A DNA stretch of 64,000 bases from Eledone cirrhosa (lineage: Eukaryota): contig OZ024744.1 in assembly GCA_964016885.1 (NCBI GenBank), forward strand, positions 68,014,001-68,078,000. Reading direction: 5' to 3'. Position numbers and translations under genes: made by a program. Numbering within the stretch: position 1 is the first letter of the stretch; each line of letters begins with the position of its first letter. The notes below the pieces were generated by a model that was not told the origin of the DNA, did not search any database, and worked only from the letters and a program-made list of their open reading frames with translations. Below, in pieces: positions 14,581-43,646 of the stretch.

Positions 14581-14835
14581 GCAAAAGTTCTATTTAAATT
14601 GTTGGGATACAACAAGCAAATATTTTTATAACTGATATAAAGCACTCGACAAGTATTTGGAGTATATATACGATATTAACAGATGGAAACTATATTTATA
14701 AAACCATATTTATTTTATTATACATATTTCAAGGATACCATGTTAAATTATGGTATGCCTTCATCAGACAAAATACAATATATACCAGTTTTATAAAAGT
14801 TTTATAAATATAGTTTCCATTTGTTAATATCGTAT
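14581..14835. mobile_element. Miniature Naiad-type PLE terminal (pLTR) insertion with inversion, in (TA)n
   Basis: 14581-14800 is homologous to 32900-33120; 14800-14833 is an inverted copy of 14671-14704. Confidence 0.8.
14711..14775 (-). ncRNA. Minimal type I hammerhead ribozyme
   Basis: Minus strand: tattttgt-CTGATGA-agg c ataccat..atggtat c ctt-GAAA-tatgta-TA-ataaaata. Confidence 0.8.
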
Positions 14836-15297
14836 ATATATATATATATATATATATATATATATATGAATGTATGCATGTATGTATGTATGTATATATG
14901 TATGCATATATTTATGTATGCATGTATGTATATGTGAATACATGTATGTATGTAAATATATATGTATATATGCATGTATGTATGCCTGTTAATATGTACA
15001 TTTGTATACATGTATGTATGTATGGATGTAAATATATATGTATGTATGTATGTCTGTCTGTTAATATGTACATATCTATACGTGTATGTATGTATGCATG
15101 GATGCATGCATGTATGCATGTATGTATGTATGTGTATGAATGTACGTATGTATGTGTAAATATATATGTATGCATGTATGTATGCATGTATATATGTATA
15201 TAAGTAATCTATGTATTGTATGTATGTATGTATATATATATATATATATATATATATATATGTAAATATGTAGGTTTGTATGTAAGTATATATATAT
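14835..15297. repeat. Compound (TA)n/(TATG)n microsatellite
   Basis: Direct inspection. Confidence 0.95.
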
Positions 15298-15626
15298 CAT
15301 CATCATTTAATTTTACGTCCACTTTTCCCTGTTTGCAAGGGTGGGACGGGAACTGATTCTGGCTTGATTTCTACAGCTGGATGCCCTTCCTAACACCAAC
15401 CTCATTTACAGTGAGTGCTGGGTGCTTTTTTGCCGTGGCACCTCCACGACCACTTTGCAGTGGAATGATATGGACCCCAGTCCCTATCATCTCATTTCTA
15501 CAGCTGAGTAAACTGGAGCAATGTGAAATAAAGTGTCTTGCTCAAGGAAACAACACATCACCCGGTCTGAGAATTGAACTCACAACCTTTCGATTGCAAG
15601 GCCAATGCACTAACCACAAAGCCATG
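15297..15626 (-). mobile_element. Full SINE family B: tRNA-like head, CORE-like body, RTE-derived tail
   Basis: Near-identical to 23998-24330; tail ttttacgtccacttttccctg(t/c)ttgcaagggtgggacggg matches the RTE 3' end at 52470-52515. Confidence 0.85.
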
Positions 15627-15929
15627 AATATATATATGTATGTATGTTCAAAGGTTAACATCTAATAATTGTAATAGTAATTTCCTTATTTCCTCTGCAC
15701 TTATATAACTGTGACAAAATAAATATTAAATTCCTTACATTATAAAGGATGTTTCACAGTTCTTTTGATGTTAAGTAGAAATAATAGTGTTTGAAGTAAT
15801 AATAACATTATTAAAACGAAAACAGAAACAATAATAACTACCAGCCTAATATAGTTCCGAGGTGAATAAGGTTCACTAAAACTCTACCATAACCATATAT
15901 ATATATATGTGTGTGTGTGTGTGTGTGTG

Positions 15930-16066
15930 AACTAGCTGTCGAAACAGCCAGAGCTCAGCCATCAGGGTCCTGACCCTTTTCCTATTACCTACTCTACAAC
16001 CCATAGTATCGAGTACTCTGGTGTGTTATGGTCCACCTGATTCCTTACCACACTTCTTTCGTTATA
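15930..16066 (+). repeat. Dispersed ~135-bp repeat ending in (TA)n, probable PLE 3' end
   Basis: gtcgaaac..gagctc...gagtactctggtgtg...ccttaccacacttc; homologues at 25860-25990 (+) and 38960-39085 (-). Confidence 0.6.
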
Positions 16067-16070
16067 TATA

Positions 16071-40331: not shown

Positions 40332-40777
40332 CAAAGATACACAAACCTATCTCCAACCTTACAGTAATAAAATGCGGAAGAACAAACTGTGGAACATGCC
40401 TATACTTAAATGAAGGGCAAAAATTCAGGTTTAAAGATGCCCAAACTTTCACAGTGAAAAACAACTTCACTTGCAACTTGGAGAACCTGATCTATATAAT
40501 CACATGTGGTGGCTGTCGACATAACTATATAGGATAGACGGGAGTGTCATTACGCAAAAGAATGACCATCCATCGCCAACAAATCCGAGACTTAAACACA
40601 AGGAAAACCCCCTTAAGTAGGCACATTTCAGATTGTGCAGGAATGACTCAACCCAACTTTAAAATCTTCCCCCTTTACAAGTGCTCCGATTCTTTCACTC
40701 AACAACAAATAATAAATAAGGAAAATCTATTTATTAACAAATTTAAACCAAAACTAAATGTTATCACCCCCCATTAG
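40332..40777 (+). pseudogene. Neptune-like PLE GIY-YIG endonuclease with one in-frame TAG
   Basis: KCGRTNCGTC linker, FTC...NLIYIITCGGCRHNYIG*TGVSLRKRMTIHRQQI...KENLFINKFKPKLN. Confidence 0.85.
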
Positions 40778-41930
40778 TTTTCCACACACACACACCACAA
40801 AGGGATCTGTGACAAACAGACTGAAAAACACACACACACACATACACCACAACGCCCTTCCCACCCACACACACATATGTACACTATTTTTTATGTGTGT
40901 GTGTGTGTATATATATATATTTGTATATATTTATATGGAGAATTATGTTTGTAAGTATTTATCTTATTATAATATTGTAGTGGGTTAAATATATAAATAT
41001 CTATATATATTTTAATAATAGCATATGTATTTTTATTAAAAAGATAATTTGCAATTATTAGTTGTTTATAATATGAGTTACGAGGGATTTTAATTTTGTG
41101 TTTTATGTAGATAAATAAATAAATAGGTAGTTCAAGTTTTAGGTGGTTATTTTTAATATGAGTTACGAGAGAAGTTGATTTTGTATTTTATGTAAATAAA
41201 TAGGTAGTTAAAATTATGAATTTATATATTTGGATAACTTGTTCAGCATTGAGAGTGTTTTAAATTAACGGAATTAGGTATAATAAGTTTATATGATTGA
41301 GAAAGGAAAGATAACTCCAATTTTATTTGTTAAACGATAAAAGTTTTAAGAGTTAGTGTGAGATTAATTAATTATTTAGTCGAAAGAAATATGAATGTTT
41401 AAACATCGTCTTGAATAGGATACATTTTCTAAAGTCAGTTAATGGTTATTAATCTACGTTTAAAAAAATAGATTTAGAGGGTGTCATTGGAAAAATAAAG
41501 TTAAAAAATTAAAAAATTAAAAAATTAAAATTAGAATTATATAGATATACATAAATATTTATAAATATCTATGCACATATATATATATATATATATATAT
41601 ATATATATATATATATATATATATATATATATATATATATATATATATATATATATATAAATTATTTAAAAAAATTGCTGAAACGTGAAAGTACTACAAA
41701 TATAAGAGATATGATTTAGCGATATTAATATATTAAAAATATAAATTGTTAAAAAAGATAGGATCATTTTGAAGATTTATAGGAATATTATAAATTACAC
41801 ATAGTTCTGAATGTAGAATTTTGGCGATGTCTGCAAGAATTAAATAATTCTGTTCTGAGATTAATAGACAGTTAATTATATAAAAAATTTCTTCAATACA
41901 CAATTTACAGAATTTTGATAAAGCCATGTT

Positions 41931-43073
41931 TTAGTTCGCAGGTGCTTCTGAAATCGTTTTCCAAGATATTGAATAGTCTATATTCTTGCTTTTTAAGTTC
42001 CATATAAGATGTGAAAGAGAAGTGGAAGATTTTTTATCAGATCTTCTGAAAGAGTGATTATGGTTATTCCAGCGATCTTTAAATTTTGTAGAAGTGGCAC
42101 CGACATAGTTAAATATATTATCACTAGTTTTTACTGTGCATTTATCTAAACATTTATTTTTATCTAAACATTTATTTTGTAAAGGGCAGTTTGATTTGAT
42201 TCTACAGTTACATTTTACGGAGTTGTTGTTGCTCGGAACGGTACTATTATGTTGGAAATTGCTAGAAATAAAATTATTGCTATTATGGTTATTTTGGTTA
42301 GGGTTTAAATTTAAGTTTCTATTATTAATTCTATTTATATTTTGTGCTATGTTCATAGTAGTAGAGTAGGATAGTTTTATAGTATGTCTGTTAAAGATTG
42401 AGTGGTATCTGTGGGCTTTAGGAAAACATTTGTCTAGTGCTTTAAAGAATAGTTTTGCTAAAGGTGTTTTAACACTTAATGAGAATGAGGGTGAGTACCA
42501 CATACTATTTCTAGTTCTAGTTCTTTTGTTTGGTTTAGAGTTTAAGTTAAATAGTTTATTATAATTAATACTAGGGTGATTTGCCATGTTATTGTTGTCA
42601 ATGTATTTAATTTTATTCGAATACCTTGCTCTATTTAAAGCTTCATTATAATATTCAGCCTTATCATCAAAAATATTTTTATTAGCAGAGATGCGTGAAA
42701 TTCGTTGTTGGACGCTATTGACAATAGTGTTCTTAATAGATCTAGGATGATTAGAGTTAAAACTTACGTAATTTAGATTCTCATTAATTTTATGGAAAGG
42801 ATAGTAAAGCCCTGTGCTAAGGTTTAATGTTACGTCTAAGAAGTTAACGATTTTATAGTTATTCTCTATTTTTAACTTAAGGTTATAATTATTGAAAAAT
42901 TGTATTATGGATTTTCTTTTCCTATTAATTTCACAATTACTATGATTTTCAATTAAAAGTAGCATATCATCACGATATAAACCACCGGTCATTTCTGGCA
43001 TTTTCCTATGCAGTGTATTATTAATAAATAAGCCCACAAGATCCGTTATTTGCGCCGAGTCAGATGACCCCAT
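41931..43073 (-). CDS. PLE RT C-terminal half and GIY-YIG (disrupted upstream and downstream)
   Basis: MGSSDSAQ, GGLYRDD, VNFLDVTL, CNCRIKSNCPLQNKC, YVGATSTKFKDRWNNH; clear paralogue of 35345-37208. Confidence 0.88.
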   Translation of the reverse strand: MGSSDSAQITDLVGLFINNTLHRKMPEMTGGLYRDDMLLLIENHSNCEINRKRKSIIQFFNNYNLKLKIENNYKIVNFLDVTLNLSTGLYYPFHKINENLNYVSFNSNHPRSIKNTIVNSVQQRISRISANKNIFDDKAEYYNEALNRARYSNKIKYIDNNNMANHPSINYNKLFNLNSKPNKRTRTRNSMWYSPSFSLSVKTPLAKLFFKALDKCFPKAHRYHSIFNRHTIKLSYSTTMNIAQNINRINNRNLNLNPNQNNHNSNNFISSNFQHNSTVPSNNNSVKCNCRIKSNCPLQNKCLDKNKCLDKCTVKTSDNIFNYVGATSTKFKDRWNNHNHSFRRSDKKSSTSLSHLIWNLKSKNIDYSISWKTISEAPAN

Positions 43074-43584
43074 AGTGATATCAAAATTATTTTTTCTATC
43101 GGCTCTTATCCATTAAAGTTTTCCGTGCTGTTAGAATGATATTCATTTCATCACTAGATAAATCTGCATGTTTAGATGCGCAGATAAGAGCCCTATTAAG
43201 TAAACTAGGAGTAATAGAGGAGTAGTAATTTGCAATATCCATTTGAATGAATTTTTTGTTGTTTAAATTTTATGTTATTGAACCAATCTATAACTTCATA
43301 AGTACCGTTCCATAGTTTCAGGTGTGATAGTTTAAGTTGCGGTATGATTCTATCTAATTTCCTTTTTTTTTTTCATTTTTCTTTCTTTTTCTCTTATATC
43401 TAAACTTTCCATAGCGTTTAAAATAACGGTTTTTCAATCATATAACTCAACGTTATTTACATATTCATTTGCATACTCATACATAAGTTTGAAAAATCCG
43501 TTCTTTAATCTCACTACCCAAAGAAAATTCAACTGATAAGGTATGTTTTCCTTGGCTATGTCAACATTTATAAAACACTCTTTG

Positions 43585-43646
43585 TATTTTATCTGATGAA
43601 AGCGTACCAAAGTTTTTGGTACCCTTGAAATATATATAATAGAATA
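43585..43646 (+). ncRNA. Minimal type I hammerhead ribozyme
   Basis: tattttat-CTGATGA-aag c gtaccaaa..tttggtac c ctt-GAAA-tatata-TA-atagaata. Confidence 0.85.

Follow-up and report, generated by a model that had tools for sequence, protein, structure and literature searches.

Six hammerhead ribozyme motifs were found in a 64,000-nt stretch of the Eledone cirrhosa genome (GenBank assembly GCA_964016885.1, contig OZ024744.1, positions 68,014,001–68,078,000 of the forward strand), hereafter called the window, in which position 1 is the first letter. The motifs sit near the 3′ ends of five insertions into (TA)n, which almost certainly belong to Hydra-clade Penelope-like elements (PLEs). The features are listed in Table 1, with hammerhead positions numbered according to standard usage. 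Publications are cited by identifier.

Table 1. Hammerheads, PLE parts and tail hairpins in the window (RT, reverse transcriptase; UTR, untranslated region; + numbers are counted from the cleavage site)
Feature	Position	Strand	Details
Small inverted-type insertion in (TA)n	14580..14831	-	long-ended arm ~14580-14797 (-), short-ended mini-arm ~14798-14831 (+)
Hairpin 1, tail of long arm	14641..14663	-	from sequence and alignment
Type I hammerhead	14711..14775	-	C3 of CUGAUGA at 14767; predicted cleavage after 14719; C-C at stem II position 4
5′-truncated 3′-end fragment of PLE family	30197..30718	+	short end at +38
Type I hammerhead	30618..30688	+	C3 30626; predicted cleavage after 30680; C-U mismatch; stem III palindrome imperfect
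Separate 5′-truncated fragment, same family as 30197..30718	32627..32790	+	short end at +40
Type I hammerhead	32688..32758	+	C3 32696; predicted cleavage after 32750; C-U mismatch; palindromic GC-rich stem III
Inverted 5′-truncated arm	32900..35347	-	long end (+142), including ~90-nt tail
Hairpin 1, tail of long arm	32962..32984	-	from sequence
Type I hammerhead, inverted arm	33034..33099	-	C3 33091; predicted cleavage after 33042
RT, Hydra-clade, 5′-truncated	35339..36580	+	DKT, YRDD; frame break near 36560-36580
C-terminal GIY-YIG-type endonuclease region	36546..37208	+	CxCX5C linker, CxxC, CxH motifs
Long 3′ UTR of main arm	37209..38933	+	short end at +50, then (TA)n
Type I hammerhead, main arm	38826..38891	+	C3 38834; predicted cleavage after 38883
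Second, decayed Hydra-clade arm	40916..43337	-	RT-endonuclease about 41830-43330 plus 3′ UTR; no recognisable hammerhead left
Type I hammerhead	43585..43646	+	C3 43593; predicted cleavage after 43638; C-C mismatch
Hairpin 1, tail of 43585 insertion	43698..43720	+	from alignment

A scan of the window for CUGANGA...GAAA gave 11 raw matches, six of which carry the flanks described in an earlier note made from the letters of this DNA, and a generic type I descriptor gave exactly six matches compared to a mean of 0.02 (maximum 1) in 100 local dinucleotide shuffles. All six motifs reported in that note were recovered at their positions, each with the core CUGANGA, GAAA and NUH in type I order, an 8-bp stem I and GAAA followed by 6 nt and UA, and its predicted AUA cleavage positions 32750 and 43638 were obtained again. 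Its count of six did not hold as a count of independent examples: the 33034 and 38826 sites were shown to be arms of one inverted duplication (32984–35347 compared to 36588–38941, 98.65% over 2,371 nt), so that there are five insertions from four families, and selection acts on the source families rather than on these copies. The 30618 and 32688 sites were also considered as tandem repeats, which was rejected, the shared stretch being only 183 nt and each copy having its own terminal TA run. Nor does the term minimal apply in its published sense of an absent helix III (PMC4209133), a 6-nt palindromic insert being present. The Rfam check proposed in the earlier note was negative: no hammerhead family was found among the 150 matches listed of 157 for the window (E ≤ 5), in a scan of 38760–38935 (E ≤ 10) or in seven relative loci (E ≤ 1).

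The proteins encoded by these elements were found to carry RW-, DKT, YRDD, CxCX5C, CxxC and CxH motifs without CCHH. RWK-like, DKT, CxCX5C and CxxC/CxH motifs without CCHH are the published signature of the Hydra clade (PMC8557442, section 11); in this lineage the residue after RW is T, I or R. One open reading frame (ORF) encodes the RT followed by a C-terminal GIY-YIG-type endonuclease, and is unbroken over more than 700 codons in sister copies (L098, L100, and L101). Besides, insertion into (TA)n with a 3′ hammerhead was found as in that clade. The best named protein homologue among 515 matches was from Argonauta hians (46% identity), which makes an octopod host likely; published Hydra proteins were compared by eye only, and Pfam recognised neither the RT nor the endonuclease of these elements. 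Same-strand hammerheads flank the ORF at 3.3–4.0 kb in 4 of 20 regions that had been chosen for close ribozyme pairs. This unit length compares with less than 3 kb given for the Hydra clade, a descriptive rather than a diagnostic trait. Naiad PLEs were excluded, since their endonuclease is N-terminal and they have no canonical hammerhead, whereas the endonuclease here is C-terminal.

The earlier note had likened the motifs to the type I hammerheads of both PLEs and retrozymes. The first likeness stands; the second does not, the sites flanking RT-endonuclease ORFs in units of 3.3–4.0 kb. Of the five insertions, three are short and carry no coding sequence, and type I hammerheads are reported to be common to retrozymes and PLEs, which could speak for non-autonomous retrozymes or even chance motifs. 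However, no tandem arrays of 170–400 nt were found in the window, longer copies of each family reach into RT-endonuclease sequence, and chance predicts 0.02 matches, with none in reversed-pattern controls. Such an origin is thus largely refuted and highly improbable. A further short hammerhead-like family with a small stem II was seen at three other loci (L028, L236, and L267), with several copies in L236; this family could be a true tandem retrozyme.

Genome searches with four mutually exclusive patterns gave 15,809 + 36,490 + 10,013 + 1,858 = 64,170 matches, and none with the reversed controls. For a sister form, in which stem I is GC-rich, 14,292 matches were obtained compared to 59 in its control, and stem I of at least 4 bp was found in 20 of 30 distinct matches among the first loci. 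The hammerhead load is about 26 per Mb; insertions are fewer than matches because many matches are paired arms. For scale, 126,247 type I motifs are reported for axolotl (PMC7229834) and about 9,000, in published work, for Xenopus tropicalis. Since Rfam misses this ribozyme form, a large number of hammerheads in cephalopod genomes have likely gone uncounted.

An alignment of 206 distinct copies showed stem II positions 2, 3, 5, 6, and 7 to be paired in 200, 198, 197, 197, and 196 copies, and position 1 (the place of G10.1-C11.1) in 155, the first pair being A-U, G-U, U-U or A-C. Position 4 was paired in only three copies, and showed C-C in 148 and C-U in 45; one search pattern had fixed the C at this position for part of the loci, and the other patterns left it free. 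The same position was paired in 0 of 20 copies of the sister form and in 0 of 17 natural family representatives. In these representatives, both partners differ in 14 of the 21 named pairs, a count reached by none of 500 shuffles; this significance is overstated, as the structure was derived from the same, related sequences. RNAalifold predicted stems I and II with position 4 left open. The compensatory changes in stems I and II claimed in the earlier note are borne out by this covariation across families. Among Hydra-type metagenome relatives, hammerheads were found in 53 of 78 loci, and position 4 was paired in 42 of 43 distinct ones; stem II was also fully paired in Hydra families chosen from the E. 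cirrhosa genome by protein alone. In a tree of 31 proteins, made with a quick method without a published reference or outgroup, the mismatch-bearing elements (n = 8) were set apart from all others by a branch with support 99. The C-C or C-U mismatch is a real lineage trait, because it is unpaired in this lineage and its sister form, paired in other Hydra families and confined to one side of this branch; the lineage specificity that the earlier note had only suspected is thereby supported. In the window, it was seen at all six sites (C-C in four, C-U in two), whereas the 3-bp stem II base that had been described below it is reduced to two pairs at the 33034 and 38826 sites, where A-C stands first and an extra mismatch is present at position 8. 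In all families, stem I was seen to stop at 8 bp (position 9 paired in 13/206); it may resume past a bulge or internal loop and might partner the mismatch of stem II.

The mismatch may serve as a tertiary or protein contact. Taken further, binding by a protein, or gating by one, might be the main reason why the hammerhead fold and its mismatch are kept, with cleavage coming only late and releasing or destroying the template. Fixation of the mismatch while neighbouring positions covary, weak intrinsic folding, and the protein-assisted cleavage reported in Anolis (PMC11167929) would suit such a role, which is nevertheless improbable, since transposition also occurs in other Hydra families of this genome, whose stem II is fully paired, and the palindromic stem III indicates RNA–RNA dimers.

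Stem III was found to be an 8-nt self-complementary stretch in which, apart from the first two pairs fixed by the search pattern, the third pair is formed in 201 and the central pair in 204 of the 206 copies, the two central bases being UA (96), UG (67) or CG (41). A 2-bp stem III in a monomer would cost 2–3.5 kcal/mol and is unfavourable. The central pair cannot form in a monomer, only between two ribozymes, which fits a dimer cleavage mechanism such as has been described in the literature for newt and PLE hammerheads. The covarying palindrome is thus consistent with cleavage as a dimer, as judged from sequence, and the palindrome or near-palindrome noticed earlier was seen here again, imperfect in the 30618 copy. 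That a dimer pairs two different RNAs, one for each arm of an inverted pair, was considered and found to be unsupported: the ribozyme regions were identical in 17 of 45 pairs, and most differences were private. Among these 45 pairs, one (L300) resembles two subfamilies and two are cross-family neighbours. At L265, L287, and about nine further matches, a repeat ending in CTAG recurs within TA-rich stem III, which suggests that the stem III DNA is itself a target.

Copies were found to terminate either at about +38 to +57 (short end) or at about +129 to +158 (long end), i.e., at two ends ~90 nt apart. Of the 45 inverted pairs, 38 of the 39 classifiable ones combined a long with a short end (one of the 38 being a cross-family neighbour pair), one was short and short, none was long and long, and six were unclassified. 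The insertions in the window fit this scheme: the 33034 arm is long and its 38826 partner short, the 14711 arm is long and faces a short mini-arm, the 43585 insertion is long (its end, at about 43782 or +144, borders (TA)n), and the 30618 and 32688 fragments are short. The PLE tail has been published as 30–40 nt (PMC8557442), compared to about 90 nt here, and in Anolis it reflects two internal reverse-transcription starts (PMC11167929).

Behind the ribozyme, a tail hairpin was identified. Its base of 4 bp pairs RCUC with GAGY, two nucleotides bulge out on the 3′ side, and the upper stem is variable; pairing was 97% in an alignment of 20 copies. The hairpin occurs twice in copies reaching the start codon (L091, at +55 and +148; L101; and L103). 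In the leaders of 39 metagenome relatives, two copies were found in 22, one in 10 and none in 7, giving 54 matches compared to 0.39 in shuffles; the first inner pair was kept in 51 of 52 distinct hairpins (C-G in 30, U-A in 21). The hairpin is also discernible by eye in the 3′ end of the published Hydra-2_Amil. In hairpin 1 of the present lineage, the outer G-C is replaced by A-U. Among the copies that matched three reference leaders well, short ends lay 3–10 nt before hairpin 1 in 63 of 79 cases, and long ends 5–10 nt before hairpin 2 in 47 of 55; hairpin 2 is absent from the 3′ ends of copies because it lies just beyond the long end. From these positions, each hairpin probably directs one of two reverse-transcription starts. 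A group of young Hydra families (L339–L368) with many unbroken frames of 714–719 codons, a paired stem II and tails of ~75 nt was seen to have hairpin 2 enlarged by a long insert.

As to the template, (TA)n stood directly at the cleavage site as the copy end in only 84 copies. These few ends, together with copies spanning an intact ribozyme, imply that the copied RNA is uncleaved or re-ligated. The exact hairpin 2 sequence of two families gave 47 genome matches, with a complete same-strand ORF upstream in none, and long-ended arms span whole units (L091, L098, L443, and L444). Should the long start be set by hairpin 2, a template is required in which the 5′ leader follows the 3′ UTR, and a circle resulting from cleavage of both ribozymes would provide this directly; circular intermediates from cleavage have been proposed for PLE hammerheads (PMC4209133). 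A unit-length RNA circle is the template that we prefer, tentatively. A contig joint leading from the predicted cleavage base (38883) back to where stem I begins (38826) was also noticed, with two additional letters and at a depth of 629, in a sequencing run of unspecified type; it is possibly a TA-slippage artefact or a product of nested copies. The 5′ ends that cluster at +136 to +147 (10/31) were dropped as evidence, as most belong to rearranged fragments, and two of the three near-whole-ORF copies among them have short 3′ ends.

The same element could instead use uncleaved linear RNA as template, with the hammerhead only trimming or limiting transcripts and being dispensable for insertion; copying would start at the 5′ leader hairpins and then proceed by transfer to the 3′ pseudo-LTR (pseudo-long terminal repeat) or by read-through of a tandem master. 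In Anolis, PLE hammerhead mutants still insert and unprocessed RNA is the main substrate (PMC11167929). In the present copies, every arm carries an intact ribozyme, no ends map to the cleavage site, and the reach of the 5′ pseudo-LTR varies from 52 to 589 nt in 16 copies. A linear template, however, leaves unexplained the intact core, stems and palindrome across families whose RTs are ~45% different, and no two-unit tandem was found among the 47 hairpin-2 copies. We regard it as rather unlikely.

Several observations weigh against cleavage by the ribozymes and a circular template. The genome holds no scar of cleavage, ends at the site not exceeding chance: partner arms starting at 0/+1 were found in 2 of 35 cases; no 5′-end peak at the site was visible by eye among 100 listed of 734 truncated copies; and none of 31 hairpin-2 copies started within 5 nt of it. 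A partial upstream ORF is present in 2 of the 47 hairpin-2 copies, and whole-unit long arms would also be accounted for, with no need of a circle, by strand transfer from one pseudo-LTR to the other or by tandem masters since lost. Concerning the ribozyme itself, these AU-rich copies have a minimum-energy fold other than the active one, A-C stands first in stem II of the youngest-looking family, and the palindrome covariation rests on few lineage-level events. Moreover, Anolis Poseidon, the only reconstituted PLE, inserts equally well with a dead hammerhead, its intact hammerhead cleaves only with protein, and no RNA ends are seen at the site (PMC11167929); Naiad PLEs amplify without hammerheads (PMC8557442).

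Weighing both sides, we consider the ribozymes quite probably cleavage-competent in some context, and an account in which dimer self-cleavage yields unit-length RNA that becomes a circularised template somewhat favoured on balance; both judgements rest on comparative sequence data. In this account, the hammerheads would self-cleave after AUA as stem III dimers, perhaps with protein help, cutting the transcript to unit-length RNA, which is predicted to circularise and to serve as template. The RT-endonuclease would nick (TA)n on both strands. A start 3–10 nt upstream of hairpin 1 would give the short-ended arm, and one 5–10 nt upstream of hairpin 2 the long-ended arm. Copying back through the intact ribozyme and mostly stopping early would produce 5′-truncated inverted pairs, and copying that sometimes passes the whole unit would produce pseudo-LTRs. 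More speculatively, the hammerhead and the two hairpins may form a three-part RNA module of Hydra-clade PLEs, in which the two subunits of an RT-endonuclease dimer are docked by one hairpin each, and each hairpin fixes one of the two priming sites on the ribozyme-made circle, with the mismatch gating cleavage. If true, such a module would jointly explain the PLE tail, the inverted long and short arms and the pseudo-LTRs, and the fixed mismatch would be a new tertiary or protein contact gating cleavage in this lineage.

Other elements were also found in the window. Inverted arms (87.7% over 668 nt) with a GIY-YIG remnant that carries a CX4CxxC linker lie at 39587–40228, 40331–40780, and 44277–44910; the element is Neptune-like by a published motif, and the Hydra-type insertion at 40916–43782 appears to be nested within it. 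RTE-like LINE remnants were found at 17152–18747 (+), with a PHD-finger match inside the RT ORF, and at 52476–55926 (−). Besides, there are a DDE transposase remnant at 16243–16752 (−), an L1/Tx1-like remnant with zf-RVT at 49576–52391 (−), a further decayed RT element at 56307–59495 (+) and Helitron-like PIF1 helicase pieces at 59971–62507 (−). Near-perfect inverted repeats resembling MITEs (miniature inverted-repeat transposable elements) lie at 337–678, 4150–4238, 6234–6308, 19358–19699, 30791–30936, and 39040–39149; such repeats of the window yield spurious miRNA matches in Rfam.

Published work already describes hammerheads in PLEs, including those of the Hydra clade and, among these, an octopus family with a different hammerhead (Hydra-1_Obim of Octopus bimaculoides; PMC8557442). 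Neither in the searched literature, which included few subscription papers, nor in the main text of PMC8557442 were the mismatch, the copy number or the twin hairpins found; these points may be touched on by the supplementary figures of PMC4209133 and PMC11167929, which lay outside the comparison. The literature compared also includes bioRxiv 10.64898/2026.07.22.740005, PMC6155905 and PMC13282606; the passages of the last do not mention ribozymes. Why PLEs keep hammerheads and how the one-sided tail arises are open questions (PMC8557442, section 15; PMC11167929). The tens of thousands of copies are a natural map with two fixed ends, each beside a hairpin found in distant Hydra-clade elements; the hairpins give exact RNA elements for priming assays, and the ribozyme site would give an exact junction to be sought in circular RNA.

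Compared to published Hydra-clade PLEs including Hydra-1_Obim (PMC8557442), the present elements showed the same single ORF for RT and C-terminal endonuclease with DKT, CxCX5C and CxxC/CxH. Like those, they have (TA)n targets, a 3′ type I hammerhead with a palindromic stem III, and inverted 5′-truncated arms with a tail at one end. They differ in unit length (3.3–4.0 compared to less than 3 kb), in tail length (~90 compared to 30–40 nt), in their tens of thousands of copies and, relative to the Hydra hammerheads in File S2 of that paper, in the fixed stem II C-C/C-U mismatch. Like the minimal hammerheads of metazoan PLEs (PMC4209133), the ribozymes are of type I, lie in pseudo-LTRs, have a long helix II and a palindromic 15.2–16.2 region, and occur both singly, dispersed, and as opposite-strand pairs lying close together; cleavage as dimers and intermediates in circular form were proposed there. 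In contrast to those, helix III is short here, helix I comprises 8 bp (or 5 bp when GC-rich), and the G10.1-C11.1 pair is not conserved. Animal non-LTR retrozymes (PMC7229834) share type I hammerheads, which are dimer-dependent in amphibians, and a very high copy number, but are non-coding tandem repeats of 170–400 nt, whereas the present copies are truncated copies of autonomous elements. With Poseidon PAc of Anolis carolinensis (PMC11167929), the elements would share a tail defined by two internal starts downstream of the hammerhead and priming on both target strands. PAc belongs to another clade and starts in one AC-rich stem-loop inside the ORF, whereas the starts proposed here lie in the 5′ leader, each directly 5′ of one of two homologous hairpins.

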